From the IMG/VR virus record IMGVR_UViG_2734482775_000005: DNA of 25,408 nt; one strand, 5' to 3'. This DNA comes from a virus. Its lineage: Duplodnaviria > Heunggongvirae > Uroviricota > Caudoviricetes. The notes under the pieces were generated by a model, which saw only the letters and a program-made list of their open reading frames with translations, ran no database searches and was not told the DNA's origin. Shown one piece after another: positions 4,594 to 25,408 of the stretch (position 1 is its first letter; every line of letters starts with the position of its first letter). Position numbers and translations under genes: made by a program.

Positions 4594-4688
4594 AAGATGG
4601 GGCGTTTTTACGGGGAGAGCAGGTTAAAGAGACGATACGAAAAAATGTATCTCCTCTTGAACGTTACCGTAATAACAAACAACGATAG
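4464..4688 (+). CDS. Hypothetical early protein
   Basis: 74 aa; ATG 4464 with GGAGAAAG RBS 6-13 nt upstream; protein-like composition. Confidence 0.4.
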   Translation: MYAAESEVVYQFRYRGESYSVPEDDLLCCYPSLSGDGSYFFTLKDGAFLRGEQVKETIRKNVSPLERYRNNKQR

Positions 4689-6434: not shown

Positions 6435-8845
6435 GCCATGCTGATATGAACAACTGCAGCGGCTTTAACGAGGTCGCCGCAGCATTCTCATGGAACAGCC
6501 CGAAAAAGGCCATTAACCCTTATCTGGACCCGGCGGAAGTTGCGCCGGTTTCTGCGCTTTCAAACCTGATCACTCTGTACGCTGCCGATAACGAGCAGGA
6601 ACAGCTGCGCCGTGAGGCGCTGAGTGATCAGGTCTGGGAGCGTTATTTCTTTAATGAATCCCGTGATCCTGTCCAGCGCGAAATGGAACAGGATAAGCTC
6701 ATTAGTCGGGCAAAGCTGGCGCATGAGCAGCAGCGTTTTAATCCGGATATGGTCATTCTGGCGGACGTCAACGCCCAGCCTTCCCATATCAGCAAGCCGC
6801 TGATGCAACGTATTGAATACTTCAGCAGCCTGAGCAGGCCAAAGGCTTATTCCCGCTATTTGCGTGAGACGATTAAGCCATGTCTGGAACGACTGGAGCA
6901 TGTACGCGACAGTCAGCTATCTGCGTCTTTTCGCTTTATGGCAAGCCATGAAGGGCTGGACGGCCTGCTGATCCTGCCTGAAATGAGTCAGGATCAGGTG
7001 AAACGCCTGTCCACCCTGGTAGCTGCGCATATGAGTATGTGCCTTGATGCCGCTTGTGGCGATTTGTATGCCACCGATGACGTTAAGCCAGAAGAAATCC
7101 GCAATACATGGGAAAGGGTGGCAGCGGAAACCCTGCGTCTGGATGTCATCCCGCCTGCGTTTGAGCAACTCCGTCGGAAAAGAAACCGCCGTAAACCCGT
7201 GCCCTATGAACTCATTCCGGGTTCGCTGGCACGTATGTTGTGCGCCGACTGGTGGTATCGGAAATTATGGAAGATGCGTTGCGAATGGCGGGAAGAGCAG
7301 TTGCGTGCTGTCTGCCTTGTCAGCAAAAAAGCATCTCCCTATGTCAGCTATGAAGCCGTGTTGCATAAACGTGAGCAGCGCCGTAAGTCGCTGGAGTTTT
7401 TCCGTTCTCATGAACTGGTGAACGAAGACGGCGACACGCTGGACATGGAGGATGTGGTAAACGCCAGCAGCAGCAACCCTGCGCATCGCCGCAATGAGAT
7501 GATGGCCTGTGTTAAAGGTCTGGATCTTATCGCGGAAATGCGCGGTGACTGCGCCGTTTTCTACACCATCACCTGTCCGTCACGTTTCCATTCCACGCTA
7601 AATAACGGCAGGCCCAACCCGACCTGGACAAATGCGACGGTAAGACAAAGCAGCGATTATCTGGTCGGTATGTTTGCTGCATTTCGTAAGGCGATGCACA
7701 AAGCCGGGTTGCGCTGGTATGGCGTGCGGGTGGCTGAGCCGCATCACGACGGCACAGTTCACTGGCACCTGTTGTGTTTCATGCGCAAAAAAGACCGCCG
7801 CGCCATTACTGCATTGTTGCGTAAGTTTGCTATCCGTGAAGACCGCGAGGAGCTGGGCAATAACACGGGGCCGCGCTTTAAGTCTGAGCTGATTAACCCG
7901 CGCAAAGGAACGCCGACAAGCTACATAGCGAAATACATCAGTAAGAACATTGACGGGCGTGGTCTGGCTGGCGAGATCAGCAAGGAAACGGGTAAATCTC
8001 TGCGTGATAACGCTGAATACGTGAATGCCTGGGCGTCTTTGCATCGTGTTCAGCAATTCCGCTTCTTTGGCATTCCGGGACGTCAGGCTTACCGTGAACT
8101 GCGATTGCTGGCTGGTCAGGCGGCAAGGCAACAGGGGGACAAAAAAGCAGGTGCGCCGGTACTGGATAACCCGCGCCTTGATGCCATCCTGGCTGCTGCT
8201 GATGCTGGTTGTTTTGCCACCTACATCATGAAGCAGGGCGGCGTACTGGTTCCCCGTAAATATCACCTCATCAGAACCGCTTATGAAATCAACGAAGAGC
8301 CGACCGCCTATGGCGATCACGGCATTCGTATTTATGGCATCTGGTCACCCATTGCAGAGGGCAAGATCTGCACTCATGCAGTGAAGTGGAAAATGGTTCG
8401 TAAAGCCGTTGACGTTCAGGAGGCGGCAGCCGACCAGGGCGCTTGCGCCCCTTGGACTCGTGGCAATAACTGTCCCCTTGCTGAAAATTTGAACCAACAA
8501 GGGAAAGACAAATCAGCTGATGGGGATACCAGAACGGATATCACCCGCATGGATGACAAGGAGTTGCACGATTACCTGCACAGTATGAGCAAAAAAGAGC
8601 GCCGGGAACTGGCAGCAAGATTACGCCTGGTGAAACCGAAACGGCGTAGAGACTACAAACAGCGAATTACAGACCATCAACGACAGCAGCTCGTCTATGA
8701 ACTGAAGTCCAGAGGATTTGATGGCAGCGAGAAAGAGGTCGATTTACTCCTTCGCGGCGGCAGTATTCCGTCAGGAGCAGGCCTGCGAATCTTCTATCGG
8801 AACCAGCGTTTGCAGGAAGATGATAAGTGGCGGAACCTGTATTAA
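6431..8845 (+). CDS. A: Replication initiation endonuclease (P2 gpA-like rolling-circle initiator)
   Basis: 804 aa; HUH-type motif VHWHLL; size and position as P2/186 gene A; ATGA coupling with dam. Confidence 0.85.
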
Positions 8846-9590: not shown

Positions 9591-9788
9591 CGTAGATCAT
9601 GCAGGTGCATGAAAACCACTACATAAAGCGGGCAGGCGTGGCGGGGATACGAGCGCGCGCCCGGTAGTTTAAATATAAAGTTATCAAAAGATGTTTTGAT
9701 GGAACTTTGTTATGGTTAATGTGTCAACCAAGATGTAAACTATATTGAAAAGAACGTTATTGATGGATTTTAAAATTAGGAGGGCGAC

Positions 9789-10595
9789 ATGAGTGACAGC
9801 AATCGCATGTCCAATGCACCCGTATACTATGTGCTGGCGCAAGTTAAGTTTACGCCTATCAAGGCGATGAAAAAGTATGTCGATGACATTCAGGAAGCAT
9901 TGCGTTTAAGGGGCTATCCACTCTTTGAAAGAAGAGAGGCAATGCAAATGGTGTTTGATGTTAATACGCCCGGTGAATCGCCTCAGCCATCTTTTGAAAT
10001 GGTCCAGCAGTGGTATATGTCTGACATCACTAAGACTTCAGGTTTTGTCTTGGGTAACGATTTTATTACTTTCCAGACGACTGATTACAAAGAACATGAA
10101 CCGTTCTTTAAAGCATTGATGGAAGGATTGTCTGTCGTAATAGAACATGCTAACCCAGCCCTTTTGACAAGACTTGGTTTGAGGTATCTGGATGCCGTAA
10201 TACCTAGTGAGGGTGAAAAGATTGAGCAGTACCTTTGCAATGGCTTACATGGTGTAGATTTGGATTTATCTCCGATACAATCGGTTAACGAGATGGTTTT
10301 CCAAACAAATGTTGGTCCTGTTATAAGTACTGGCTTTTTAGTAACTCGTTTGCATAAGATGTTTGGTCAGTTGAGTTTTCCTCCAGATATCTTGCCCTTT
10401 GGGGTTGAAATGCTTGAGCGGTTCAGGAGCGACAAGGCTCTTTGGCATGGGATTATTGATACAGACCATTATGTTGAAGGAAACATGCCGCCAGAAATAG
10501 ATTCAATTGAGCAACAGTTCAATTCACTACATGGTGTTGTAAAGGAAAGCTTTAATAAAATGGTATCCCAACATGCCATTAATAGGTGGGTATAA
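9789..10595 (+). CDS. Cargo gene 1 of three-gene operon: unknown-function protein (268 aa)
   Basis: AGGAGGG RBS before ATG 9789; no family assigned with confidence (N-terminal NAPVYYVLAQVKF is, very tentatively, reminiscent of TIGR04255-type uncharacterised proteins); AT-rich versus phage core. Confidence 0.75.
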   Translation: MSDSNRMSNAPVYYVLAQVKFTPIKAMKKYVDDIQEALRLRGYPLFERREAMQMVFDVNTPGESPQPSFEMVQQWYMSDITKTSGFVLGNDFITFQTTDYKEHEPFFKALMEGLSVVIEHANPALLTRLGLRYLDAVIPSEGEKIEQYLCNGLHGVDLDLSPIQSVNEMVFQTNVGPVISTGFLVTRLHKMFGQLSFPPDILPFGVEMLERFRSDKALWHGIIDTDHYVEGNMPPEIDSIEQQFNSLHGVVKESFNKMVSQHAINRWV

Positions 10596-10612
10596 CACCG
10601 GGGAGGTGTAAT

Positions 10613-11254
10613 ATGCGTCAATCCATGACTGGTAGTTGCTATGGGACTCCTGGTTTAGCTCCTATTGCTGGAGCGTTATTTGTTGCAACCTCTATGTTCC
10701 TGAGTGGAACAGGAGCGAGCTATTCTGTGAAGGATGTAAACCAGTGGCGTGGTTTTGTACAACCTAAAGTCCATTTTGGGTTATCTAAACTTGAAAATCA
10801 TGGGGATACAGATAATGACCCTGTTGATATCAGGACAATTTCAGAACATTTAAGTAATGTTAGGGATACTCTTTCTCCATCAATGTCAGAACTGGCTAAA
10901 GATTTGGGTATTACTAGGCAAGCATTATACAAATGGTTATCCGGTGACAGTCAGCCTGATGATATTGGGAAAGCTGGTTACATCATTGAACTCAGTAGAT
11001 TAGCCGATCGCTTTAACAAAGCAGGAGTAGAAAATGCTAAGTTGATGTCAAAAATGAAAGCGTTTGACGGCTTATCTATTATTGATTTGATTAAGCGAGG
11101 CGATGACTGGAAGTCGTCTGTGAATCTCTTAATCGATGAAGCTCGCCAGCTTAAAATTGCAGGTGTAAAAGCGAATTTAACTGGGAGCAAAAGCACGCCA
11201 ACTGACGGGTGGATGTCGTCTGTTTCTATACCTGGTTCAGGAATGAAGGAGTAG
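10613..11254 (+). CDS. Cargo gene 2: protein with central XRE-type helix-turn-helix and an N-terminal hydrophobic segment
   Basis: ATG 10613 with GGGAGG RBS, 17 bp after gene 1 stop; HTH-like MSELAKDLGITRQALYKWLSGDSQP; N-terminal GLAPIAGALFVATSMFLSGTGA is possibly a membrane helix. Confidence 0.7.
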   Translation: MRQSMTGSCYGTPGLAPIAGALFVATSMFLSGTGASYSVKDVNQWRGFVQPKVHFGLSKLENHGDTDNDPVDIRTISEHLSNVRDTLSPSMSELAKDLGITRQALYKWLSGDSQPDDIGKAGYIIELSRLADRFNKAGVENAKLMSKMKAFDGLSIIDLIKRGDDWKSSVNLLIDEARQLKIAGVKANLTGSKSTPTDGWMSSVSIPGSGMKE

Positions 11255-11264
11255 ATAGTCATTT

Positions 11265-12104
11265 ATGGTTGATATTGCTACAGCATGGCGCCAAGGCCAG
11301 GTTCTTAGGCATGAGGATGCAGTTTCTTTGGGTATTCTTACCGAAGAGGAAATAGGCGTTAAAGTTGTCGTGATCAGTCATGATTGTGACTTGCAAAGCT
11401 CTTCTGAACCCAGCGTTGAGCTTATTGCTGGCCCTCTCATTAAGGGGGCCAGCAATTATGCACGTGCTAAACATCCCAGAGTTCTGCATTTGCATTTAGA
11501 GCAAGCGCGTGACGCGAATCAAAATGCAATTGAACTAAGACATGACAACAAATTTCGTATTGATAAAGAACGTTTCACGTGTGTGGGATGTGACCCTACT
11601 TGCCAAATATCCCCTGAGGAAAAGCAAGGTTTAAAACAATGGCTTGCTGCCCGCTATGGGCGACCTGCCTTTCCTGATGTTTTTGAGAGTAGGCTAAGAG
11701 CTTTCGACACAAAGAAATTTAGATTCGAAAAACAACTCGCAAAGATAATTAGCAAACATTCAGTCTATTTGATAGGTGTATTCTTTGATTTAGGCGAAGA
11801 TCGTTTCAATGATTTAGAGGAAGGTGTACCTTACGAACTGAATATTCATCTTGTCTATGATTCTATAGATGGTGGGCCGGATGCAAGAGCAGAGGCAGAG
11901 CAGGCGGCAACACAAATTGAAGAGTTCTTTGTAACGTACCATGGTGATGCGTCTGAAAGTGAACTCATTGCGCTTATGTCTTGTAACGCAGTTCCTGACG
12001 TTGAATTCAGTCTGTATGCGTTACGGCGAATGGACCAGTGGCGGGTTGAGTACATTAGTCTACAAGGTGATGACGTGGGTGATTACATCAACCCAGCCAT
12101 CTAA
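11265..12104 (+). CDS. Cargo gene 3: unknown-function protein (279 aa)
   Basis: ATG 11265 ten bp after gene 2 stop with AAGGAG upstream; no recognisable domain by eye; ends at the bidirectional terminator. Confidence 0.75.
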   Translation: MVDIATAWRQGQVLRHEDAVSLGILTEEEIGVKVVVISHDCDLQSSSEPSVELIAGPLIKGASNYARAKHPRVLHLHLEQARDANQNAIELRHDNKFRIDKERFTCVGCDPTCQISPEEKQGLKQWLAARYGRPAFPDVFESRLRAFDTKKFRFEKQLAKIISKHSVYLIGVFFDLGEDRFNDLEEGVPYELNIHLVYDSIDGGPDARAEAEQAATQIEEFFVTYHGDASESELIALMSCNAVPDVEFSLYALRRMDQWRVEYISLQGDDVGDYINPAI

Positions 12105-12110
12105 TATATT

Positions 12111-12153
12111 AAAAAGTACTGTGTGTTCAATTTGAACAAACAGTACATTTATT
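12111..12153. terminator. Bidirectional intrinsic terminator between convergent cargo gene 3 and portal gene Q
   Basis: Near-perfect 15-bp inverted repeat GTACTGTGTGTTCAA / TTGAACAAACAGTAC (one mismatch) flanked by AAAAA on the left and ATTTATT on the right. Confidence 0.55.
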
Positions 12154-13186
12154 CCCTTGGTTCTAGACAATATGATTCAAAGCGAGCTACCTCCTCACCA
12201 ACCCATTGGTTAAGTTCTTGCAGCCGCTTCTGTAGCGGAATTAGCTCGTTTCGGACAAAGACTTTGCTGGCCTTTTCCACATCACCAAACCCCCCGACAT
12301 TATTAGGCATAATCCCCATCATTTGCGGCGGCACGCGGTGCGCAGCCATCATGTCATCACGGCTCACGTTCTTGATATTCAGAAACTCATCCTTCGCTGC
12401 GACTTCTGACAACGGGATAATCTGAAGTCCGTCCTTTTTGCCGTTAGGCGAGTACATAAACAGATTGCGGAAGTTGCCAGGGCCTTTGGCGCTTTTCATC
12501 GCGTTGCGGAGGTTGTTCACATCCTCCTGGTTCTGCGCGGCATCGGTCATATACATGATGAAGCCTGCATGGCTGCCGTTGATGTAATACTTACGGCGGA
12601 ACAGCGTGGCGGACTCGTTGAGCAGGGCTGACGGAATGGCAGAAAGATAACCGGGCAGGCCGTAGATCTCCTGATTAATATCCGGTTCCATCAGATGAAA
12701 AATGCTGCCTTTCGTGAACTGATACGGCTGGGTTGTCATACCGTATTGCACAAACCAGTAGGTATCCAGGTCTAATCCGCGTCGGGTGTATTTTGCCAGC
12801 GCAGGTTCAAGGGCGATCACTTCACCGAAGCGGTTCGTGCGTTTCTCCAGATAGGCATTGCCAAATACCAGATAGTCCTGCACAAAACGCGAAAAAGCCT
12901 GCTGGCTGAGCAGAGGATGAGGGATATAGGTACTGGTCAGAATGTTACACTTTACTGCAATCGGGGAACTGTGATGCACGGCAGCGCGGAAGGTGCGCGC
13001 CAGTCCGTCAAAGCTGACGGGAGGCTCATACCAGCGGTCCATCTGTACGCATTCCACATAGTCCAGCAGTTCACGGCGGTCCAGAACAGGAACGGGATCG
13101 CCGAAGCTGAATGCTTCGGCTGTAGTTTGACTTTTAAGCTGGATCTGTTTCGTCGCCGCAGCTCGGTTCTTCTTACTCTTTCCCAT
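12149..13186 (-). CDS. Q: Portal (capsid portal vertex) protein, P2 gpQ-like
   Basis: About 345 aa; position and orientation as P2 Q; ATG at 13186 overlaps the terminase stop. Confidence 0.9.
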   Translation of the reverse strand: MGKSKKNRAAATKQIQLKSQTTAEAFSFGDPVPVLDRRELLDYVECVQMDRWYEPPVSFDGLARTFRAAVHHSSPIAVKCNILTSTYIPHPLLSQQAFSRFVQDYLVFGNAYLEKRTNRFGEVIALEPALAKYTRRGLDLDTYWFVQYGMTTQPYQFTKGSIFHLMEPDINQEIYGLPGYLSAIPSALLNESATLFRRKYYINGSHAGFIMYMTDAAQNQEDVNNLRNAMKSAKGPGNFRNLFMYSPNGKKDGLQIIPLSEVAAKDEFLNIKNVSRDDMMAAHRVPPQMMGIMPNNVGGFGDVEKASKVFVRNELIPLQKRLQELNQWVGEEVARFESYCLEPRE

Positions 13187-15094: not shown

Positions 15095-15928
15095 ATGACA
15101 GTGAAAGCAAAGCGTTTTCGCATCGGGGTGGAAGGTGCCACCACCGACGGACGCGAAATCCAGCGTGAATGGCTGGAACAGATGGCAGCCAGCTACAACC
15201 CGGCGGTGTATACCGCGCTGATTAACCTTGAGCACATCAAGTCTTATCTCCCGGACAGCACCTTTAACCGCTACGGCAAGGTGACGGCGCTGTTTGCTGA
15301 AGAAATCACGGAAGGCCCGCTGGCAGGCAAGATGGCTCTGTATGCCGACGTTGAGCCAACGGAGTCCCTGGTGGAACTGGTGAAAAAAGGCCAGAAATTA
15401 TTCACCTCTATGGAAGTCAGCCCGAAGTTCGCTGATACGGGCAAAGCCTACCTGGTCGGCCTGGCTGCCACTGATGATCCTGCCAGTCTGGGCACTGAAA
15501 TGCTGACATTCAGCGCCAGTGCAGCCCATAACCCGCTGGCAAACCGCAAGCAGAATCCCGCCAATCTCTTTACCGCCGCAGAGGAAACGGTGATCGAACT
15601 GGAAGAAGTCCAGGACGACAAACCGTCCCTGTTTGCCCGCGTCACGGCGCTGTTTACCAAAAAAGAGCAGTCCGATGACGCCCGGTTCTCTGATGTGCAT
15701 AAGGCCGTGGAGCTGGTCGCCACTGAGCAGCAGAACCTGAGCGCACGCACCGAAAAATCCCTGTCTGAGCAGGAAGAACGTCTGTCTGAGCTGGAGACTG
15801 CCCTGCAGGCACAGCAGAACGCCTTTAACGAACTGGTGAATAAGCTGAGTCATGAAGACAGCCGCCAGGACTACCGCCAGCGTGCAACAGGCGGTAACGC
15901 CCCCGCTGACACTCTGACCAATTGCTGA
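15095..15928 (+). CDS. O: Capsid scaffolding protein, P2 gpO-like
   Basis: 277 aa; N-terminal FRIGVEGATTDGREI; GGAG RBS. Confidence 0.85.
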   Translation: MTVKAKRFRIGVEGATTDGREIQREWLEQMAASYNPAVYTALINLEHIKSYLPDSTFNRYGKVTALFAEEITEGPLAGKMALYADVEPTESLVELVKKGQKLFTSMEVSPKFADTGKAYLVGLAATDDPASLGTEMLTFSASAAHNPLANRKQNPANLFTAAEETVIELEEVQDDKPSLFARVTALFTKKEQSDDARFSDVHKAVELVATEQQNLSARTEKSLSEQEERLSELETALQAQQNAFNELVNKLSHEDSRQDYRQRATGGNAPADTLTNC

Positions 15929-15943
15929 TGGAGCACAAACCTG

Positions 15944-17002
15944 ATGAAGAAGAATACCCGCTTTGCTTTTAACGCTTATCTGCAGCAACTGGCACGTCTG
16001 AACGGTGTGGCAGTTGAAGAACTGTCCAGCAAGTTCACTGTAGAGCCGTCTGTGCAGCAGACGCTGGAAGACCAGATCCAGCAGTCCGCCGCTTTCCTGA
16101 CGCTGATTAACGTCACGCCAGTGACTGAGCAGTCCGGTCAGCTGCTGGGGCTGGGTGTTGGCAGCACCATTGCCGGAACCACTGACACCACCGCGAAAGA
16201 GCGTGAACCTGTCGATCCGACGCTGATGGTCGATGTGGAATACAAATGCGAGCAGACCAACTTTGACACGGTGCTGACCTACGCGAAGCTGGACCTGTGG
16301 GCGAAGTTTCAGGATTTCCAGGTGCGTATCCGTGACGCCATCGTGAAACGTCAGGCACTGGACCGCATCATGATCGGCTTTAACGGCGTGAAGCGTGCGA
16401 AAACCTCCAACCGTAGTGAAAACCCGCTGCTGCAGGATGTGAACAAAGGCTGGCTGCAGAAAATCCGTGAGGATGCACCGGATCACGTCATGGGCAGCAC
16501 CACCACGGGCGGTGAAACCACTCCGGGTGCGGTGAAAGTCGGGAAAGGTGGCGAATATGCCAACCTGGACGCTGTGGTGATGGATGCCGTCAATGAGCTT
16601 ATCGACGTGGTTTACCAGGACGATGACGATCTGGTGGTGATTTGCGGTCGTGAACTGTTGTCTGACAAGTATTTCCCGCTGGTCAACAAAGAGCAGGAAA
16701 ACAGTGAAAAACTGGCTGCCGATATGATCATCAGCCAGAAACGCATGGGTGGCCTGCAGGCCGTGCGTGCGCCGTTCTTCCCGCCGAATGCGCTGCTGAT
16801 CACCCGTCTGGATAACCTGTCCATCTACTGGCAGGAAGACACCCGCCGCCGTTCAGTTATCGACAACCCGAAACGTGACCGGATTGAAAACTTTGAATCC
16901 GTTAATGAAGCCTATGTGGTTGAGGACTACCGCTGCGCCGCACTGGTGGAAAACATCCAGATTGGTGATTTCAGCGCCGCCGCAGCCGAAACCGGAGCGT
17001 AA
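15944..17002 (+). CDS. N: Major capsid protein, P2 gpN-like
   Basis: 352 aa; position between O and M. Confidence 0.9.
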   Translation: MKKNTRFAFNAYLQQLARLNGVAVEELSSKFTVEPSVQQTLEDQIQQSAAFLTLINVTPVTEQSGQLLGLGVGSTIAGTTDTTAKEREPVDPTLMVDVEYKCEQTNFDTVLTYAKLDLWAKFQDFQVRIRDAIVKRQALDRIMIGFNGVKRAKTSNRSENPLLQDVNKGWLQKIREDAPDHVMGSTTTGGETTPGAVKVGKGGEYANLDAVVMDAVNELIDVVYQDDDDLVVICGRELLSDKYFPLVNKEQENSEKLAADMIISQKRMGGLQAVRAPFFPPNALLITRLDNLSIYWQEDTRRRSVIDNPKRDRIENFESVNEAYVVEDYRCAALVENIQIGDFSAAAAETGA

Positions 17003-17005
17003 TCC

Positions 17006-17656
17006 ATGAGCCTGAGTCCCGCACGGCAGCATCGCCTGCGCGTTCAGGCTGAACAGGCCGCCCGCGAGGGCGGCAGTGTTCGCCACGCATCGGGCTATGA
17101 CCTGATGCTGCTGCAACTGGCGGAAGACCGCCGCCGTCTCAAGGGCGTTCAGTCCACGGTCAAAAAAGCGGAAATCAAGGTGGAGCTGCTGCCGAAGTAC
17201 GCCGCCTGGGCAGAGGGTGTCCTGGCTGCCGGAGGCGCTCAACAGGATGACGTGCTGATGTACGTGATGCTGTGGCGCATTGATGCCGGAGATTATGCCG
17301 GGGCGCTGGAGATCGGGCGTCATGCCCTGCGTCATGGCTGGGTGATGCCGCTGGGTAACCGCAACGTGCAGACCGTGCTGGCAGAGGAAATGGCAGACGC
17401 CGCGCAGAGCGCAATGCTTGCCGCCACCGGCTTTGATGCCGATCTGTTGTTGCAGACGCTGGAGCTGACAGACGGTCTGGATATGCCGGACCAGTCACGG
17501 GCGCGTCTGCATAAAGCGATTGGCGCTGTCCTGAGTGAAAGCAATCCGGCTTCCGCCCTTAATCATCTCAACCATGCGTTACAGCTTGATCCCCGCTGTG
17601 GCGTGAAAAAAGACAAACAGCAGCTGGAGCGCAGACTGCGCAATGACAGCCGCTGA
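17006..17656 (+). CDS. M: Terminase small/endonuclease subunit, P2 gpM-like
   Basis: 216 aa; resembles P2 M (…DDVLMYVMLWRIDAGDYAGALEIGRHALRHG…). Confidence 0.85.
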   Translation: MSLSPARQHRLRVQAEQAAREGGSVRHASGYDLMLLQLAEDRRRLKGVQSTVKKAEIKVELLPKYAAWAEGVLAAGGAQQDDVLMYVMLWRIDAGDYAGALEIGRHALRHGWVMPLGNRNVQTVLAEEMADAAQSAMLAATGFDADLLLQTLELTDGLDMPDQSRARLHKAIGAVLSESNPASALNHLNHALQLDPRCGVKKDKQQLERRLRNDSR

Positions 17657-17751
17657 CAGAACGTGCCCCCGCGCACGGGCGGCACGGGGTGGCGAAAGGC
17701 ACTGCCACATCAAAACCCCGTCCACCGCCCTCTATTTCAGGAGAAAGCAGC

Positions 17752-18216
17752 ATGAAGTTTGTTGCGCCAGAACAGGCACCGGAACAGGCGGAAATCATCA
17801 GAAATACGCCGTTCTGGCCTGATGTGGACCTGTCGGAGTTTCGCAGTGTCATGCGCACTGACGGCACGGTGACGCAGCCGCGTTTAAAGCAGGTTGCGCT
17901 GTCGGCAATTTCGGAGGTCAACGCAGAGCTGTATGAGTTTCGCAGACGTCAGCAGATGCTGGGGTATGTGTCGCTGGCTGAGGTTCCGGCGGAACAGCTG
18001 GACGGCAAAAGTGAGCGCATTCAGCACTATTTCAACGCGGTTTACTGCTGGGCACGCGCCATGCTCAACGAACGATACCAGGACTATGACGCCACGGCAT
18101 CCGGTGTGAAGCGAGGCGAGGAACTGGCGGAATCCAGCGGTGATTTGTGGCGTGACGCCCGCTGGGCTATCAGCCGGGTGCAGGATGCGCCGCACTGCAC
18201 AGTGGAGCTTATCTGA
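17752..18216 (+). CDS. L: Head completion/stabilisation protein, P2 gpL-like
   Basis: ATG 17752 with AGGAGAAAG RBS (track ORF begins at an upstream GTG); ATGA overlap with X. Confidence 0.8.
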   Translation: MKFVAPEQAPEQAEIIRNTPFWPDVDLSEFRSVMRTDGTVTQPRLKQVALSAISEVNAELYEFRRRQQMLGYVSLAEVPAEQLDGKSERIQHYFNAVYCWARAMLNERYQDYDATASGVKRGEELAESSGDLWRDARWAISRVQDAPHCTVELI

Positions 18217-18419
18217 TGAAAGTGCGTGCGCATCAGTATGACACGGTGGACGCGCTTTGCTGGCGTCATTACGGGCGCACGCAGGGTGTCACGGAGCAGG
18301 TACTGAAGGCAAATCCGGGGCTTGCCGAATATGGCCCCTTTTTACCTCACGGGCTGCAGGTGGAGCTGCCGGACATTCCGACCACCACCACCGTGCAGAC
18401 CGTCCAGCTATGGGACTGA
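18216..18419 (+). CDS. X: Tail protein X, P2 gpX-like
   Basis: 67 aa; conserved position between L and the lysis cassette. Confidence 0.8.
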   Translation: MKVRAHQYDTVDALCWRHYGRTQGVTEQVLKANPGLAEYGPFLPHGLQVELPDIPTTTTVQTVQLWD

Positions 18420-18422
18420 ATT

Positions 18423-18638
18423 ATGACGCTTGAGCGAATCAGCGCCTTTATCACGTACTGCATCGCCGTTGTGCTGGCCTGGCTGGGCGATTTGTCCATC
18501 AAGGATGCCTCAACGCTGGGCGGCCTGATGATTGGTGTGCTGATGCTGGCTATCAACTGGTACTACAAACACAAAGCCTACCAGCTTCTGCGCGACGGGC
18601 AGATCTCGCGGGAGGACTATGAATCCATCAATCGTTAA
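18423..18638 (+). CDS. Holin
   Basis: 71 aa with two hydrophobic helices and a charged C-terminus; first gene of the lysis cassette, overlapping the endolysin start. Confidence 0.7.
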   Translation: MTLERISAFITYCIAVVLAWLGDLSIKDASTLGGLMIGVLMLAINWYYKHKAYQLLRDGQISREDYESINR

Positions 18639-19131
18639 ACGCTGCCTTGTCGGGGCCGTGCTGGCTATTGCTGCCACGCTGCCGGGGTTTCAGCAGCTTC
18701 ACACCTCCGTGGAGGGGCTGAAACTGATTGCCGATTACGAAGGCTGTCGTCTGCAGCCGTATCAGTGCAGCGCGGGCGTCTGGACCGACGGCATTGGTAA
18801 CACGTCAGGCGTCATTCCCGGCAAAACCATTACGGAACGACAGGCAGCAGAAGGACTGATTTCCAACGTGCTGCGTGTGGAGCGGGCGCTGGAAAGGTGT
18901 GTGAAACAACAGCCGCCGCAGAAGGTATATGACGCTGCGGTGTCGTTTGCCTTCAACGTGGGAACGGGCAATGCCTGCAGTTCCACGCTGGTGAAATTAC
19001 TCAATCAGCGGCGCTGGGCGGATGCGTGCCGACAGTTGCCGCGCTGGGTTTATGTGAAAGGTGTGTTTAATCAGGGGCTGGATAACCGCCGTGCGCGGGA
19101 GATGGCCTGGTGTTTACAGGGAGCAAACTGA
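18619..19131 (+). CDS. K: Endolysin (phage lysozyme), P2 gpK-like
   Basis: 170 aa; lysozyme-like EGCRLQPYQCSAGVWTDGIGNT; GGGAGG RBS. Confidence 0.85.
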   Translation: MNPSIVKRCLVGAVLAIAATLPGFQQLHTSVEGLKLIADYEGCRLQPYQCSAGVWTDGIGNTSGVIPGKTITERQAAEGLISNVLRVERALERCVKQQPPQKVYDAAVSFAFNVGTGNACSSTLVKLLNQRRWADACRQLPRWVYVKGVFNQGLDNRRAREMAWCLQGAN

Positions 19132-19132
19132 A

Positions 19133-19510
19133 ATGAAAAAGAAGTTAATCAGCGGGCTGTTTCTGATGTTATGGATGGCGCTGTTAATCGCAGCAATGGT
19201 GTATCCGCAGGGGATTTTTCCGGTACTGGCAGCGTCCGGCGTTTGGGTAGCCTGTTTACTGACATGGGCGGTAATTCCGGTAGCACTGGCTGCGTTAATT
19301 AAGAACGGCCCGCTCTGGCAGGAGTTGAGGGCATCTTTGCTTAAGACCATTACCCGAAAAGAAAACGTATTTATCAGCTGGGTGATGCGATTGCTGATTG
19401 TCGTAAGTCTCGCCTGGACGGGGTGGGCTATTACTCTGGTCTTTTATCTGCTGACCGCTATTGCCTTCTGGATCACCCGTAATCAGATGGCGCAACAGGT
19501 AGCAGCATGA
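19133..19510 (+). CDS. lysA: LysA-like multi-pass membrane lysis accessory protein
   Basis: ATG 19133 with AGGGAG RBS; several hydrophobic helices; position as P2 lysA. Confidence 0.6.
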   Translation: MKKKLISGLFLMLWMALLIAAMVYPQGIFPVLAASGVWVACLLTWAVIPVALAALIKNGPLWQELRASLLKTITRKENVFISWVMRLLIVVSLAWTGWAITLVFYLLTAIAFWITRNQMAQQVAA

Positions 19511-19935
19511 ACCGGTTGCTGCTGGTTATGCTGGCGTTATTACTGGCGGCGCTGGGCTGGCAGACGTGGCGGCTGGCTGATGCCAGCCAGACCATCAGCA
19601 CGCAGGCAGACGAGCTGCAGCGCCAAAGCCAGGCACTGGCAAAGAGCAACAGCCAGCTTATCAGCCTGTCCATTCTGACTGAAACCAATAACCGGGAGCA
19701 GGCGCGGCTCTATGCCGACGCAGAACAGACCAGCGCACTGCTGAGACAACGACAACGCCGGATGGAGGAACTGAAACGTGAGAACGAGGATTTACGCCGC
19801 TGGGCTGATACTCCTTTGCCTGCTGACATTATCCGGCTGCGGGAACGTCCGGCACTCACCGGAGGTGCAGCTTACCGTCAGTGGTTGTCCGCGAGTGACG
19901 CCGTGTCGGCTGGATCAGGCAACGCCGCGCACTAA
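19507..19935 (+). CDS. lysB: LysB (Rz-like inner-membrane spanin)
   Basis: N-terminal transmembrane helix LLLVMLALLLAALGW then coiled coil; ATGA overlap with lysA. Confidence 0.7.
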   Translation: MNRLLLVMLALLLAALGWQTWRLADASQTISTQADELQRQSQALAKSNSQLISLSILTETNNREQARLYADAEQTSALLRQRQRRMEELKRENEDLRRWADTPLPADIIRLRERPALTGGAAYRQWLSASDAVSAGSGNAAH

Positions 19936-20068
19936 TGGTGATCTGAACGCGTTGCTGGATGAAACGGAGGCTGCCTGGGCGGTCTGTGCAGACAAAGTGG
20001 ACATGATTATTGCGTGTCAGGAGCGAAACAGTGAACAAACCACAATCCCTGCGCCACGCCCTCAATAA
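19778..20068 (+). CDS. lysC: LysC (Rz1-like outer-membrane lipoprotein spanin), overlapping lysB out of frame
   Basis: GTG start with GGAGG RBS; lipobox LLTLSGC; embedded in and extending beyond the 3' end of lysB. Confidence 0.65.
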   Translation: MRTRIYAAGLILLCLLTLSGCGNVRHSPEVQLTVSGCPRVTPCRLDQATPRTNGDLNALLDETEAAWAVCADKVDMIIACQERNSEQTTIPAPRPQ

Positions 20069-20462
20069 AGCGGTGCCTTATGTCCGCAATAACCCGGACA
20101 AACTGCATCTGTTTGTGGATAACGGTTCGCTGGTTGCCACGGGGGCCAGCTCCATGTCGTGGGAGTACCGTTACACCCTGAACGCGGTGATTGAGGATTT
20201 CAGTGGCGACCAGAATCTGCTGATAGCTCCGGTTTTGCTGTGGCTGAGGGATAACCAGCCCGATGCCATCAATAACCCGGCGTTACGGGAAAAACTATTC
20301 ACCTTTGAGGTGGATATTCTGCGCAACGATGTCTGTGATATCAGCCTGAACCTGCAACTGACGGAGCGTGTGCTGGTCAGCACTGACGGCAGTGTGTCGA
20401 GCGTTGAAGCTGTAGCGGAACCTGATGAACCTGAAGAAATGTGGACGGTGAAACGTGGCTGA
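20031..20462 (+). CDS. R: Tail completion protein R, P2 gpR-like
   Basis: GTG 20031 with AGGAG RBS 7 nt upstream (track ORF begins at TTG 20010); N-terminus NKPQSLRHAL resembles P2 R as I recall it. Confidence 0.75.
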   Translation: MNKPQSLRHALNKAVPYVRNNPDKLHLFVDNGSLVATGASSMSWEYRYTLNAVIEDFSGDQNLLIAPVLLWLRDNQPDAINNPALREKLFTFEVDILRNDVCDISLNLQLTERVLVSTDGSVSSVEAVAEPDEPEEMWTVKRG

Positions 20463-20901
20463 ACTGCAGAAAGTGGACGACTGGCTGAGTGCCTTGCTGG
20501 CGAATCTGGAGCCAGCCGCCAGAAGTCGCATGATGCGCCAGCTGGCGCAGGAACTGCGCCGGGCACAGCAGCAGAACATCAGGATGCAGCGCAATCCAGA
20601 TGGCAGCAGTTATGAACCGCGACGGGTAACAGCACGCAGTAAAAAAGGCCGTATCAAACGTCAGATGTTTGCAAAGCTGCGCACCACAAAATACCTGAAA
20701 ACTTCCGCCAGCGCCGACTCTGCCAGCGTGCAGTTTGAAGGCAAGGTGCAGCGCATTGCCCGCGTTCACCATTACGGCCTGCGTGATCGCGTCAGTCGCA
20801 AAGGACCGGAGGTCCGTTACGCAGAGCGTCGCCTTCTGGGTGTAAATGATGATGTTGAGGCAATGACCCGCGACATGATTCTGCAATGGCTGGCGGGGTG
20901 A
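20455..20901 (+). CDS. S: Tail completion protein S, P2 gpS-like
   Basis: 148 aa; GTG start overlapping R stop. Confidence 0.8.
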   Translation: MAELQKVDDWLSALLANLEPAARSRMMRQLAQELRRAQQQNIRMQRNPDGSSYEPRRVTARSKKGRIKRQMFAKLRTTKYLKTSASADSASVQFEGKVQRIARVHHYGLRDRVSRKGPEVRYAERRLLGVNDDVEAMTRDMILQWLAG

Positions 20902-20905
20902 TCTT

Positions 20906-20923
20906 TGTATCAGCACTGATACA
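20906..20923 (+). promoter_or_regulatory. Late-promoter activator site (TGT-N12-ACA dyad) upstream of V
   Basis: TGTatcagcactgatACA in the S-V intergenic region; a second CAGCACTG copy lies 19 bp downstream. Confidence 0.45.
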
Positions 20924-20969
20924 AGTTGCAGCACTGCCGCCTTTCTTCCCCTGATGGCAACCTTTCCCT

Positions 20970-21548
20970 ATGAACGCACAATTAACCGAAATCATGCGCC
21001 TTATCACCAACCTGATCCGCACAGGGGTAGTCACCGAAGTGGACAGGGAAAACTGGCTTTGCCGGGTGAAAACGGGCGAGCTTGAAACCAACTGGATCAG
21101 CTGGCTGACGCTGCGTGCCGGGAATGCCCGTACATGGTGGCGACCATCGGAAGGTGAGCAGGTGGTGCTGCTGAGTCTGGGCGGCAATCTGGAAACCGCC
21201 TTTGCGCTGCCCGCTGTCTATTCGAATCAGTTCGCACCACCGTCGACGTCGGCGGACGCCTGCGTGACAGAACATCCTGACGGTGGCTGGTTTGAATACG
21301 AACCCGCCACCGGGCGCTGGTATGTCAGGGGCATCAAATCAATGGTCATTGAGGCTGCTGACAACATCACCATGAAAACCAGTGAGTTTGTACTGGAGGC
21401 TGACCGCACGCGCATTAACAGCGAAGTGGTGATCAATGGTGGCGTTACCCAGGGCGGCGGAGCGATGAGTTCTAACGGGATCGTGGTTGATGCGCATCAG
21501 CATACTGGCGTCCTGAAAGGCGGCGATACAACCGGAGGCCCGGTATGA
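20970..21548 (+). CDS. V: Baseplate spike/assembly protein V, P2 gpV-like
   Basis: 192 aa; first gene of the tail/baseplate operon. Confidence 0.85.
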   Translation: MNAQLTEIMRLITNLIRTGVVTEVDRENWLCRVKTGELETNWISWLTLRAGNARTWWRPSEGEQVVLLSLGGNLETAFALPAVYSNQFAPPSTSADACVTEHPDGGWFEYEPATGRWYVRGIKSMVIEAADNITMKTSEFVLEADRTRINSEVVINGGVTQGGGAMSSNGIVVDAHQHTGVLKGGDTTGGPV

Positions 21549-21904
21549 CGCTTTATAGCGGGATGAACAATACCAGCGGCAAAGTCATTACTGATATTGA
21601 TCATCTGCGCCAGTCGGTGCGGGACATTCTGCTGACACCGCAGGGTAGCCGTATTGCCCGCCGGGAATATGGTTCCCTGCTGTCGGCACTGATAGATCAG
21701 CCACAAAATCCGGCATTACGCCTGCAGGTCATGTCGGCAGTGTATGTGGCGCTGAGTCGCTGGGAGCCACGGTTGACGCTGGATTCCATCACCATCAACA
21801 GCAATTTTGACGGTTCAATGGTGGTGGAGCTGACCGGGCGGCGGAATAACGGTGTGCCTGTGTCCCTTTCCGTATCAACAGGAGCAGAGAATGGCAGTGA
21901 TTGA
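21545..21904 (+). CDS. W: Baseplate assembly protein W (gp25-like), P2 gpW-like
   Basis: 119 aa; ATGA overlap with V. Confidence 0.85.
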   Translation: MTLYSGMNNTSGKVITDIDHLRQSVRDILLTPQGSRIARREYGSLLSALIDQPQNPALRLQVMSAVYVALSRWEPRLTLDSITINSNFDGSMVVELTGRRNNGVPVSLSVSTGAENGSD

Positions 21905-22799
21905 CCTTTCGCAGTTGCCTGCACCGCAGATTGTGGATGTGCCGGACTTTGAGACGCTGCTTGCCGAACGCAAGGCAGAATTTGTGGCGCTTCATCCGAA
22001 AGATGAGCAGGAAGCAGTGATCCGCACGCTGGAACTGGAATCTGAACCCGCCACTAAATTGTTGCAGGAGAACGCTTACCGTGAGTTGCTTCTGCGCCAG
22101 CGTATTAACGAAGCCGCGCAGGCGGTGATGGTGGCTTACGCGATGGGCGGCGATCTTGACCAGCTCGCTGCCAACTACAACGTGACACGCCTGACGGTGA
22201 CGCCTGCTGATAATGATGCTGTGCCGCCCGTTGCAGCTGTGATGGAAAGCGATGAAGCGTTGCGCCTGCGTGTGCCTGCAGCCTTTGAAGGGCTTTCTGT
22301 TGCGGGGCCAACTGCAGCTTATGAATTTCATGCCCGAAGCGCCGACGGTCGGGTGGCGGATGCCAGTGCAACCAGCCCGGCACCTGCAGAGGTGGTGCTG
22401 ACTGTCCTTAGCCGCGAAGGCGATGGAACTGCAGAAAAAGACCTGCTGGACGTGGTGGAAAAAGCTCTGAACAGTGAGAACGTCCGCCCGGTGGCTGACC
22501 GTCTGACGGTTCGCAGCGCAGAAATCATCCCGTATCGCGTGGAAGCCACCATTTTTCTCTATCCGGGACCGGAAGCTGAGCCGGTAATGGCAGCGGCAAA
22601 AGCCAGTCTGCAGAAGTACATTGCCAGCCAGACGAGGCTTGGTCGGGATATTCGCCGTAGCGCCATCTTTGCTGCTCTGCATGTTGAGGGTGTTCAACGT
22701 GTGGAACTGGCTTCTCCGCTGGCGGATGTGGTCCTGAACAAAACACAGGCGGCATCATGTACGCAGTGGAGCGTAACCAACGGAGGAACGGATGAATAG
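21891..22799 (+). CDS. J: Baseplate assembly protein J, P2 gpJ-like
   Basis: 302 aa from ATG 21891 with AGGAG RBS; overlaps W stop. Confidence 0.85.
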   Translation: MAVIDLSQLPAPQIVDVPDFETLLAERKAEFVALHPKDEQEAVIRTLELESEPATKLLQENAYRELLLRQRINEAAQAVMVAYAMGGDLDQLAANYNVTRLTVTPADNDAVPPVAAVMESDEALRLRVPAAFEGLSVAGPTAAYEFHARSADGRVADASATSPAPAEVVLTVLSREGDGTAEKDLLDVVEKALNSENVRPVADRLTVRSAEIIPYRVEATIFLYPGPEAEPVMAAAKASLQKYIASQTRLGRDIRRSAIFAALHVEGVQRVELASPLADVVLNKTQAASCTQWSVTNGGTDE

Positions 22800-23397
22800 T
22801 CTGCTGCCACCGGGTTCAACGCCACTGGAGCGCCGACTGGCGCAAACCTGTAGCGGGATTTCTGATCTGCAGGTGCCGCTGCGTGACTTGTGGAATCCGG
22901 CTACCTGTCCGGTCAGCTTCCTGCCTTATCTCGCCTGGGCGTTCTCTGTGGATCGCTGGGACGAGGGCTGGACAGAAAGCGTCAAACGCCAGGTAGTGAA
23001 GGATGCTTTTTATATTCATCAGCATAAAGGAACCACCAGTGCCGTGCGGCGGGTGGTGGAACCGTTCGGATTCCTGATCCGCATTATTGAGTGGTGGCAG
23101 ACCGGAGAAACACCGGGCACGTTTCGCCTGGATATCGGCGTGCAGGACCAGGGCATCACTGAAGATACCTATCTGGAACTTGAGCGACTGATAAGCGATG
23201 CCAAACCATGTAGCCGTCACATGATCGGCATGTCCATCAATCTGCAGACCAGCGGCCCGCATTGGGTGGGAGCCGCCAGCTATCTTGGCGAAGAAATCAC
23301 GATCTATCCGTATATCAACGAAACGATTATTTCCGGTGGCACCGCGCATGAAGGCGGGGCGGTCCATGTTATTGACACAATGAGAGTGAATCCATGA
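22792..23397 (+). CDS. I: Baseplate/tail protein I, P2 gpI-like
   Basis: 201 aa; overlaps J stop and H start. Confidence 0.85.
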   Translation: MNSLLPPGSTPLERRLAQTCSGISDLQVPLRDLWNPATCPVSFLPYLAWAFSVDRWDEGWTESVKRQVVKDAFYIHQHKGTTSAVRRVVEPFGFLIRIIEWWQTGETPGTFRLDIGVQDQGITEDTYLELERLISDAKPCSRHMIGMSINLQTSGPHWVGAASYLGEEITIYPYINETIISGGTAHEGGAVHVIDTMRVNP

Positions 23398-24569
23398 GCA
23401 CAAAATTTTATACCCTGCTGACGGATATTGGCGCGGCGAAACTTGCCAGCGCCGCCGCGCTCGGTGTGCCGCTAAAAATTACCCATATGGCGGTGGGCGA
23501 TGGCGGTGGAGTATTGCCAACGCCGGACGCAAAGCAGACGGCACTGGTAAATGAGAAACGCCGGGCTGCGCTGAATATGCTTTATATCGACCCGCAGAAC
23601 AGCAGCCAGATTATTGCCGAACAGGTGATCCCTGAAAACGAGGGCGGTTGGTGGATACGTGAAGTGGGCTTGTTTGATGAGTCCGGGGCATTGATTGCCG
23701 TGGGCAACTGCCCGGAAAGCTATAAGCCGCAACTGGCTGAAGGTAGCGGGCGCACTCAGACCGTGCGCATGGTGCTGATTACCAGCAGTACGGACAATAT
23801 CACCCTGAAAATCGACCCTGCTGTAGTGCTGGCAACCCGCAAGTATGTGGATGACAAGGCACTGGAGCTGAAGGTGTACGCGGATGATCAGATGGCAAAA
23901 CATCTTGCCGCACCGGACCCGCATTCACAGTACGCGCCAAAAGCCAGCCCGACATTTACCGGAACCCCCAAAGCGCCAACGCCAGCGGCGGGGAATAATA
24001 CCACGCAGGTTGCGACCACTGCGTTTGTACAGGCGGCACTGACGGCCCTTATTAATGGTGCGCCAGCCACGCTGGACACGCTGAAAGAAATAGCCGCTGC
24101 CATTAATAATGACCCGAACTTTGCCACGACAATGCTTAATGCGCTGGCAGGTAAACAACCGCTGGACGATACGCTGACTAATTTGAGTGGAAAGGATGTA
24201 GCTGGTCTTCTCGCATACCTTGGTTTGGGAACGGCATCGAAAAGGAATGTCGGGACGGGGGCAAATCAGATACCGGACATGTCCGCCTTCGCGTCAGGAT
24301 CTGGGTATCAAAAACTACCGGGAGGATACATTTTGCAGTGGGGATCTGCGAGTGCAGGTAACTCAGCATCAACGGGAATATCTAATACGTTCCCAATTCC
24401 ATTCCCGTCAGGGATTATCATCATTACGACCGGGCAGATTGACCCCTCTTATACTTCAGCACAACAGCCAGCAGCAGTCGGTATTTCGTCGCCCACTCTC
24501 ACTGGGTTTATTGCGAAGTCAACCGCAGCTAACACGGATGCTTTTAACTATTTAGCGATTGGGTACTGA
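23394..24569 (+). CDS. H: Tail fibre protein H: conserved N-terminal part plus short, AT-richer C-terminal receptor-binding part
   Basis: 391 aa; N-terminus MSTKFYTLLTDIGAAKLA typical of P2/Mu-type tail fibres; shorter than P2 H as I recall it; composition shifts near 24230. Confidence 0.8.
   Translation: MSTKFYTLLTDIGAAKLASAAALGVPLKITHMAVGDGGGVLPTPDAKQTALVNEKRRAALNMLYIDPQNSSQIIAEQVIPENEGGWWIREVGLFDESGALIAVGNCPESYKPQLAEGSGRTQTVRMVLITSSTDNITLKIDPAVVLATRKYVDDKALELKVYADDQMAKHLAAPDPHSQYAPKASPTFTGTPKAPTPAAGNNTTQVATTAFVQAALTALINGAPATLDTLKEIAAAINNDPNFATTMLNALAGKQPLDDTLTNLSGKDVAGLLAYLGLGTASKRNVGTGANQIPDMSAFASGSGYQKLPGGYILQWGSASAGNSASTGISNTFPIPFPSGIIIITTGQIDPSYTSAQQPAAVGISSPTLTGFIAKSTAANTDAFNYLAIGY
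24208..24233. other. Candidate 26-bp DNA-invertase crossover site (gix/hix/cix-like) inside H
   Basis: TTCTCGCATACCTTGGTTTGGGAACG matches about 15 of 26 positions of recalled hixL/gixL sites, including the ACC..GGTTT core; lies at the constant/variable junction of H. Confidence 0.4.
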
Positions 24570-24570
24570 C

Positions 24571-25005
24571 ATGGGAAATTATATTTTTAGTCCATCAAAA
24601 AATGCTTTCTATCCGTTTGAGCTAAAAACTTCATACGAAGCAACAGACTCATGGCCGGAGGATGGAGTTGATGTAGAAGATTCTATTTTTATAGAGTTCA
24701 CAGGAATTCCACCTGAGGGAATGATTCGTGGGGTTAGCGATAAAAATATGCCAGTCTGGGTTATGTGCCCTGAACCTACACAAGATGAGTTAATTGCAAA
24801 TGCTGAAGCAAAAAAACAATACCTTATTGAACAAGCGAACAATTACATCAATAGTAAGCAGTGGCCCGGCAAAGCCGCTTTAGGTCGCCTGAAAGACGTG
24901 GAAAAAGGGCAATATAATCTGTGGCTGGATTATCTCGATGCGCTGGAGGCCGTAGACACCTCCGGCGCACCAGATATTAACTGGCCTGAGTCGCCGGAGG
25001 CGTAG
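24571..25005 (+). CDS. Tail fibre assembly protein (Tfa/G-like chaperone)
   Basis: 144 aa from ATG 24571; N-terminal YIFSPSKNAFY is the classic Tfa signature. Confidence 0.8.
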   Translation: MGNYIFSPSKNAFYPFELKTSYEATDSWPEDGVDVEDSIFIEFTGIPPEGMIRGVSDKNMPVWVMCPEPTQDELIANAEAKKQYLIEQANNYINSKQWPGKAALGRLKDVEKGQYNLWLDYLDALEAVDTSGAPDINWPESPEA

Positions 25006-25408
25006 GCCATTCCGGGTCTGCTGTTTCAACACGCATCAGCAGCACCCGGTATTTTTTCCATTCAGTAAGCGCGGCGGTTTCAACTTCCGTCGCGATGCCT
25101 ACATCAACGGCATCCTGTCGCCATGCTATTTCTGAATCTGCAATAACGCGCAGGGCTGCTTTTTTGTCTTCATTTGCAGCAATTATGTCTTCTTGAGTTG
25201 GTGCTGGTATATCTGTCCATGCCGGAAGGCCGTCATCACCTGCTATTCTCATCTTTCCTTTTTCAGCAGGCGTCTGAATAAAGTTAAATACAATATCATC
25301 GCTAACTTCCACTGAATCCTCAGGCCACGCCCCTGATTTAAGGTATTCAGATCTTAAATCAGAAAGATAAAACTCATTTTTGGAAGGACTATAAAAAAAC
25401 TTATCCAT
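24977..25408 (-). CDS. Second tail fibre assembly protein on the opposite strand (alternative Tfa of an invertible segment)
   Basis: 143 aa; FFYSPSKNEFY N-terminus and C-terminal EWKKYRVLLMRVE; convergent with and overlapping the forward Tfa by 29 bp; start codon at the window edge. Confidence 0.7.
   Translation of the reverse strand: MDKFFYSPSKNEFYLSDLRSEYLKSGAWPEDSVEVSDDIVFNFIQTPAEKGKMRIAGDDGLPAWTDIPAPTQEDIIAANEDKKAALRVIADSEIAWRQDAVDVGIATEVETAALTEWKKYRVLLMRVETADPEWPTPPATQAS

Follow-up and report, generated by a model that had tools for sequence, protein, structure and literature searches.

A probable invertible tail-fibre segment truncated by the end of a P2/186-like prophage sequence

Does the tail-fibre gene at the right end of this prophage sequence have a single C-terminus, or is its last part one of two alternatives in a switch that is cut off by the end of the DNA? 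The last 4.4 kb of the window (the whole stretch of 25,408 nucleotides analysed here) form the tail module of a P2/186-like prophage, in which the baseplate genes V, W, J and I (20970-23397) are followed by the tail-fibre gene H. The original prediction, made from the letters of the window, was that this end has the arrangement of the Mu G segment and the P1 C segment. This arrangement was recovered: the constant part of H, a crossover site, a fibre tip and the assembly genes lie in the window, and the remainder is found in relatives. Very probably, the tail-fibre region of this P2/186-like (Peduoviridae) prophage contains an invertible segment, a host-range switch of the Mu-G or P1-C type, and the window ends inside it.

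Tail-fibre genes at the end of the window

The features of the region are collected in Table 1. H is shorter than its homologue in two relatives, which has 463-465 residues compared with 391 here. Residues 1-150 match the Pfam family Phage_tail_fib (E = 4.6e-65), and residues 307-391 match Gp53-like_C (E = 5.5e-13). The N-terminal part is conserved at 94-99% identity across many P2-like phages of E. coli and Klebsiella, up to approximately position 24230.

Table 1. Positions of the tail-fibre features in the window
Feature	Position	Strand	Description
Tail-fibre gene H	23394-24569	+	ORF, 391 aa
H constant N-terminal part, outside the proposed invertible segment	23394-24219	+	Residues 1-275 and first two bases of codon 276
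Left 26-bp crossover site (gix/cix/pix-like)	24208-24233		TTCTCGCATACC TT GGTTTGGGAACG; central TT at 24220-24221
In-window share of the proposed invertible segment	24221-25408		1188 bp, ~78% of ~1532 bp
H variable C-terminal tip, inside the segment, predicted to be the one currently expressed	24222-24569	+	~115 aa, gp53-like receptor-binding tip
Tail-fibre assembly (chaperone) gene, cognate to the expressed tip, Mu U equivalent	24571-25005	+	Caudo_TAP (Pfam), E = 1.6e-32
Second tail-fibre assembly gene, Mu U' equivalent, predicted silent in this orientation	24977-25408	-	Caudo_TAP (Pfam), E = 3.6e-29

Downstream of H are two tail-fibre assembly (Tfa) genes. As originally described, they lie on opposite strands, are convergent and overlap, and both prove to be Caudo_TAP members that share 29 bp at their ends. 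Their products are 36% identical. The plus-strand gene corresponds to RefSeq WP_033558720.1, a 'tail fiber assembly protein'; the minus-strand gene has its ATG in the final three bases of the window.

The base composition changes along the same region. GC content stays at 0.53-0.62 across the baseplate genes and the larger part of H (to ~24100), and falls to 0.385-0.49 past ~24300, with a local peak of 0.555 at 24900-25099, where the assembly genes meet. The AT-richer turn that had been noted after about 24230 is thus real, amounting to a fall from roughly 0.55-0.60 to 0.39-0.49.

The left crossover site

A search pattern, TTNTCNNAWACCNNGGTTT, was derived from the phage Mu gix and P1 cix records with the window excluded. 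The reference sites were the annotated crossover sites of the P1 record (cixL, CAATCCTAAACC TT GGTTTAAGAGAA; cixR, TTATCCAATACC TT GGTTTAAGAGAA) and the G-segment boundaries of the Mu record (gix, TTATCCAAAACC TC GGTTTACAGGAA). The window contains a single match, at 24208-24226 with no mismatch, and the match remains single when one mismatch is allowed. A chance match was rejected, as 0.01 matches are expected in the window; one of 100 shuffles contained one. The Gin/Hin/Cin/Pin-like site that had been noted at 24208-24233 is therefore present, as the unique match to a pattern built from Mu and P1.

The site consists of two imperfect inverted half-sites of 12 bp that flank a 2-bp core. In the half-sites TTCTCGCATACC and CGTTCCCAAACC, TC is kept at positions 4-5 and A(A/T)AC at positions 8-11. 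The site is read in frame within H, where it encodes L-L-A-Y-L-G-L-G, and the Y-L-G-L frame over it is the same as that over P1 cixR.

Similarity to relatives breaks off at this site. A megablast search with 23394-25408 matched 46 phage and 1348 E. coli records, and in nearly all of them the match ends at query positions 836-948, most often at 836-896, which corresponds to 24229-24289 of the window. With the site in frame in a 391-residue ORF and the similarity break at the same place, the original description of H as a short gene whose C-terminal part begins right after the site is upheld.

Continuation of the segment in relatives

Two complete E. coli chromosomes, JML285 (NZ_AP024114.1) and Z1323PEC0012 (NZ_CP148275.1), match positions 23394-25408 at 100%, and JML285 is identical to the window base for base over 15497-25408 (9.9 kb). 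In both chromosomes, the end of the window is followed by a minus-strand gp53-like piece, an inverted site, an invertase gene and the tail sheath gene. An alternative H C-terminus, an inverted second site and an invertase gene had all been predicted to lie beyond position 25408, and extension of the sequence to the right had been proposed as the check. Both identical relatives carry all three, including the inverted copy of the 26-bp site and the Gin/Pin/Cin-like gene.

In JML285, the silent tip is a promoterless gp53-like reading frame on the minus strand that begins 2 bases past the end of the window. The right site reads TCCTCCTAAACC AA CGTTTAAGAAAA in both chromosomes, with the central AA being the inverted TT of the left site. 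As read from JML285, its full form, TCCTCCTAAACCAACGTTTAAGAAAA, lies approximately 332-357 bases past the end of the window, and the invertase gene follows at approximately 413-979 bases, 55 bp beyond the right site. The two sites occupy 8815-8840 and 10347-10372 of the extended JML285 locus (L002, 18 kb), so that the segment measures ~1532 bp between the central dinucleotides. The core pattern AWACSNNSGTWT has exactly two matches in this locus, namely these two sites.

The crossover sites were located by inspection of the sequence and with the search pattern. A repeat search of the extended locus did not report the two as an inverted repeat, their perfect shared core being only 7 bp long; the inverted-repeat pairs that it did report were rejected as coding similarity between the two assembly genes or as chance. 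Scanned for promoters and terminators, the extended locus gave no more hits than expected from shuffled sequence.

In the relatives, both the silent tip and its chaperone have intact ORFs. Inversion of the segment in silico yields an intact H of 389 residues that continues in frame, with the other assembly gene immediately after it. An IMG/VR contig and Klebsiella phage KP12 share this layout together with both site cores, and the KP12 invertase is 99.5% identical. In all four extended loci with the minus-strand assembly gene, the right half is present.

No genome in the collection matches the window over its whole length; JML285 differs at 9662-12236. Strain MFDS1001074 matches this part and shares the cargo genes of the window; it is absent from the records that cover at least 80% of the fibre-region query, and the tail-fibre regions of these phages are highly mosaic, MFDS1001074 being an example. 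Because no genome matches the whole window, we infer the right site, silent tip and invertase of the source from relatives that are identical or nearly so.

Mosaicism offers another reading of the 26-bp sequence, as a conserved coding motif (YLGLG) that marks a module boundary. The modules would have been swapped by homologous or illegitimate recombination, and the assembly gene on the opposite strand would be a leftover. The break in similarity at the site and the reading frame shared with cixR fit this reading, as do related cassette pieces in the lambdoid phages HK97 and SfIV, neither of which has the present layout. However, it leaves unexplained the inverted second site with its matching central dinucleotide, the adjacent Gin-like invertase, and the promoterless alternative tip that is in frame.

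The adjacent invertase

The invertase of JML285 has 188 residues and is encoded on the plus strand at 10428-10994 of the extended locus, just outside the right site. It contains a Resolvase domain (Pfam, E = 2e-53) and an HTH_7 domain, and it is 79% identical to P1 Cin (tblastn). Residues 1-184 align with the structure of Mu Gin (3UJ3; E = 8e-93), and the catalytic Ser9 is aligned. At the protein level, the invertase is common to Klebsiella phages at 99%. NCBIfam returned no specific invertase model above the cut-off and no model naming the fibre proteins.

When the invertase is aligned to Gin and to the DNA-binding domain of Hin, K46, K47 and R50, together with Q150, R153 and L154, fall at Hin positions 47, 48 and 51, and 151, 154 and 155. 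The numbering of Hin is presumably offset by +1 relative to this invertase, which is consistent with the alignment to the 1HCR chain. The residues Lys47, Arg/Lys48, Arg/Lys51, Gln151, Arg154 and Leu155 of Hin have been described as unique to the invertases that depend on Fis and an enhancer (McLean et al., PMC3798978).

The P1 enhancer is annotated at nucleotides 19-90 of cin. The same stretch of the invertase gene aligns without gaps and is 78% identical, compared with 71% for the whole gene. This is suggestive of a conserved enhancer; the stretch is a coding region, and coding constraint alone could explain the difference. By analogy with Gin, Hin and Cin, inversion would be expected to depend on Fis and on an enhancer.

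Both orientations among related genomes

The segment is present in three of 5426 complete E. coli genomes, and in one of them it is turned around. In E. coli E47 (NZ_CP121151.1), a segment of 1530 bp that is 98.2% identical is inverted relative to H and the invertase. The left junction reads ...CTTCTCACATACC TT GGTTTAGGAGGAGCC... and the right junction ...CCGTTCCCAAACC AA CGTTTAAGAAAATGC...; recombination of the two JML285 sites with each other would give exactly these two reciprocal products, and the exchange falls within the 7 bp that the sites share, TTGGTTT. H of E47 is annotated as an intact ORF of 463 residues that runs in frame into the alternative tip. The gene found on the minus strand of the window lies directly downstream of the flipped H, and the tip expressed from the window has become the silent piece adjoining the invertase. 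A single fixed orientation had been named as the outcome that would speak against a switch, and the comparison, made between genomes rather than between reads, found the segment in both.

A repeat of 7 bp is not long enough for homologous recombination, so the E47 junctions are the footprint of a site-specific inversion, and a RecA-type inversion was rejected on the same ground. An exactly reciprocal inversion is also what a mosaic boundary fails to explain, the perfect repeat being too short for a RecA-type exchange, and the probability that the locus is nothing but such a boundary is close to negligible. Module exchange at the site and inversion are nevertheless compatible and do not exclude each other.

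The two junctions expected in a switching locus read ...CATACCTTGGTTTGGGAACG... and ...CATACCTTGGTTTAGGAGGAG.... A metagenome scan for either type of junction recovered two contigs in the orientation of the window and one with an unrelated tip, and no flipped copy beyond that of E47. The IMG/VR scan gave one relative, and a scan of genome contigs gave no match. JML285, Z1323PEC0012, the IMG/VR contig and the two metagenome contigs all have the orientation opposite to that of E47, so that one in seven copies of the cassette is flipped when the window itself is counted. Near-identical Klebsiella phage records that share the invertase are in one orientation in 12 of 12 cases; these probably represent one clone and are therefore uninformative.

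An orientation that predominates in this way might indicate a frozen relic, in which the architecture of an invertible segment persists and switching has been lost in the source, the invertase being lost, inactive or unexpressed or the half-sites unbound, so that the orientation is fixed. Six of the seven cassette copies, with the window counted, share one orientation, and the window itself ends without an invertase or a second site. The inner half-sites are also degenerate: CGTTCCCAAACC and TCCTCCTAAACC depart from the consensus TTNTCNNAAACC. On the other hand, the invertase ORF is intact in the relatives that are 100% identical, with the catalytic serine and the invertase-specific residues kept; the central dinucleotide is identical at both sites; the silent tip and its chaperone are still intact reading frames; and E47 is flipped with exact junctions and 98% identity over the segment. 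Loss of switching in the source is accordingly unlikely. The reading as a working invertible segment is preferred, and inversion would be expected to occur in the source strain as well.

Proposed mechanism and role of the switch

Synapsis, cleavage and subunit rotation are well established for Gin, Hin and Cin, and the present locus can be read in the same terms. The constant part of H would lie outside the segment and the variable receptor-binding tip inside it, and the segment would consist of two cassettes in opposite orientations, each comprising a tip and a chaperone. The serine invertase of the Gin/Cin/Pin family, encoded just outside the right end, would bind the two inverted 26-bp sites. 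Invertase dimers on both sites would then come together in a synaptic complex, assembled on an enhancer that lies towards the 5' end of the invertase gene and is bound by Fis. Cleavage of the four strands at the central TT would leave phosphoserine links, after which one pair of subunits would rotate by 180 degrees and the ends would be religated. A mechanism of this kind, with synapsis through Fis and the enhancer, cleavage and rotation, has been described for the serine invertases (PMC3798978).

Inversion is predicted to join the other tip, with its chaperone, in frame to the constant part of H. With the segment oriented as in the window, H would end in ...LLAYLGLG-TASKRNVG...NYLAIGY, followed by the plus-strand assembly gene. 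After inversion, it would end in ...LLAYLGLG-GAAKLDAAS...YYLAIGY, followed by the other assembly gene. In each orientation, one tip and its cognate chaperone would be produced from the late H operon, and the particles would differ in receptor specificity. The expressed tip and the silent alternative are 38% identical, and the two would be expected to recognise different receptors and thus to confer different host ranges.

A role that benefits the host rather than the phage can also be envisaged, in which inversion in the lysogen yields a protein derived from the fibre which blocks the receptors used by other phages. There is a published precedent for such a role in the inversion of the e14 P segment, which acts via PinQ and StfE2 of the cryptic prophages Qin and e14 (PMC12529663), and the present prophage carries a PD-Lambda-1 defence gene, i.e., host-protective cargo. 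However, the prophage looks complete, with int, cI, replication, head, lysis and tail genes and ogr. H therefore belongs to a late operon that should be silent in a lysogen, and the sequence has no sign that H or the silent tip is expressed outside lytic growth. A switch that mainly serves the host in this manner is very improbable.

More broadly, the consequences of the switch might reach beyond the host range of the phage. Flipping in the lysogen, by its own or another Pin-like invertase, could alter the susceptibility of the cell to other phages by way of fibre-derived products, or the two very short gp53-like tips could toggle between receptors of Escherichia and Klebsiella. The locus shares its H constant part with Klebsiella phages at 94-96% (DNA) and its invertase at 99% (protein). 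Such wider effects are improbable, and host-range switching of the phage itself is the favoured role.

The switch is easily overlooked in annotated genomes. RefSeq labels hide it, as the invertase is a 'recombinase family protein' and the silent tip a stand-alone 'gp53-like domain-containing protein'. A 1.5-kb inversion between assemblies of such prophages can be biological rather than an error, and host-range prediction for the prophage should consider two receptor-binding tips. The locus also illustrates that a truncated invertible segment can be recognised from one site and half a cassette.

Comparison with known inversion systems

The mechanism, the invertase family and the presence of such segments in P2-like E. 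coli prophages are already textbook knowledge or published. The closest parallel in layout is the Mu G segment (Gin; S/U and S'/U'), which has the same order of constant part, site, tip and chaperone, inverted chaperone and tip, site and invertase. The site core ACC-NN-GGTTT is also shared, and in both cases the invertase is encoded on the plus strand just outside the right site. In contrast to Mu, the present phage is a P2/186-like myovirus, the segment is ~1.5 kb rather than ~3 kb, the gp53-like tips have only ~113 residues, and 29 bp are shared by the two tfa genes. Mu has TC as its central dinucleotide, whereas TT is found here, as in cix.

The P1 C segment (Cin), with which the systems of P7 and p15B (Min) are grouped, has an identical core, ACCTTGGTTT, including the central TT. 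Unlike the present invertase gene, cin is located on the far side, where cixL overlaps its 3' end, and the P1 segment is 4.2 kb long. The Min system of p15B has several sites and works as a shufflon, whereas only two sites are present here.

In terms of phage family, host species and mechanism, the locus resembles the P2-like prophages of E. coli E2348/69 (PMC4272514), which are compared here from their published descriptions. Read mapping and PCR have demonstrated inversion of the fibre C-terminus in two P2-like prophages of this EPEC strain (Goldberg et al. 2014, PMC4272514). One of these loci has two variants, and the other has three sites and four variants (PMC4272514). An invertase with inversion of neighbouring genes is frequent at the Z/fun fibre hotspot of P2-like phages (bioRxiv 10.1101/2024.10.15.618418). 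The present locus differs from those of E2348/69 in that its variable cassette is rare (3/5426 complete E. coli genomes).

Two further systems share the invertase family and the type of 26-bp site. In the e14 P segment, which is served by Pin, inversion likewise joins the fibre to alternative C-termini; e14 itself is a defective lambdoid element. The Salmonella H segment with Hin, in contrast, flips a promoter for flagellin genes rather than a coding cassette, and hin is located inside its own segment. The locus departs from Mu and P1 by degree, with a 1.5-kb segment, tips of ~113 residues, overlapping chaperone genes, and a cix-like central TT combined with a Gin-like position of the invertase gene.

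Extent and Type of the Prophage

With the integrase gene (1-1053, minus strand) at one end and the start codon of tfa', one of the two tail-fibre assembly genes, at the other, the window holds about three quarters of a prophage of ~34 kb. In E. coli JML285, the prophage lies between ybjL and rcdA, and its gene content includes cI, cII, fil, a DinI-like gene and ogr. This set is 186-like rather than P2-like.

Features discussed in the text; window coordinates unless a locus is named (L002, extended locus of E. coli JML285; L008, locus of Klebsiella phage KP12)
Feature	Coordinates	Strand	Location or sequence
558-aa protein gene	1137-2813	-	between integrase and cI repressor genes
Three-gene cargo	9662-12236; ORFs 9789-10595, 10586-11254, 11265-12104	+ (all)	between DinI-like and portal genes
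Silent tip (alternative H C-terminus), RefSeq ORF	L002 10017-10400	-	just past window end
KP12 invertible segment, related cassette	L008 2570-4420		
12-nt inverted repeat	24956-24967 and 24992-25003		3' ends of tfa genes; ACACCTCCGGCG / CGCCGGAGGCGT

Accessory Genes

The gene for the 558-aa protein is a known anti-phage gene, located in a known P2-like hotspot. In PADLOC, its product scores against the defence model PD-Lambda-1 at E = 1e-119, and in Pfam it matches DUF4041 and T5orf172/MUG113; the JML285 copy is named 'SNIPE associated domain-containing protein' in RefSeq.

The three-gene cargo differs from the JML285 sequence at this position. It shares 99.7% identity with E. coli MFDS1001074, in which the annotations read TIGR04255 family protein, HTH regulator and hypothetical protein. 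A PADLOC search of the three genes gave no match, and Pfam returned a weak HTH_3 match and nothing else. Because the cargo occupies the place of the old/tin hotspot of P2, it may represent a defence or toxin-antitoxin-like cassette not yet characterised.

Variation in and around the Tail-Fibre Segment

The length of the tail-fibre protein H varies, reaching 463 aa in E. coli E47 and 465 aa in the IMG/VR relative. Both have an additional, diverged copy of a ...APATLDTLKEIAAAINNDPNF... repeat (~72 aa, 77% identical at the DNA level) directly upstream of the crossover site; H of the window has one copy (positions 4376-4660 of the E47 locus and 2458-3855 of the relative, compared with window ~23946-24230).

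The lambdoid phages HK97, HK106 and SfIV match parts of the KP12 segment at 90-98% identity in their side tail fibre and tfa genes, and matches in this range extend to KC618326.1 (a record from an O157:H43 strain, titled Escherichia phage P2) and other P2-like phages. These matches illustrate how phages of different families exchange fibre modules around these crossover sites.

The convergent tfa and tfa' genes overlap by 29 bp at their 3' ends (24977-25005). The inverted repeat found there, with arms 92% complementary and a 24-nt spacer, might serve as a stop signal for both directions midway through the segment; a terminator scan of the extended locus did not call it (24956-25003).

Annotation of the Silent Tip

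RefSeq lists the silent tip as a separate 127-aa 'gp53-like domain-containing protein'. The ATG of this ORF lies outside the invertible segment, and its reading crosses the right crossover site. The stand-alone annotation is probably an artefact that masks the switch; S' is annotated likewise in the record of phage Mu (Mup52).
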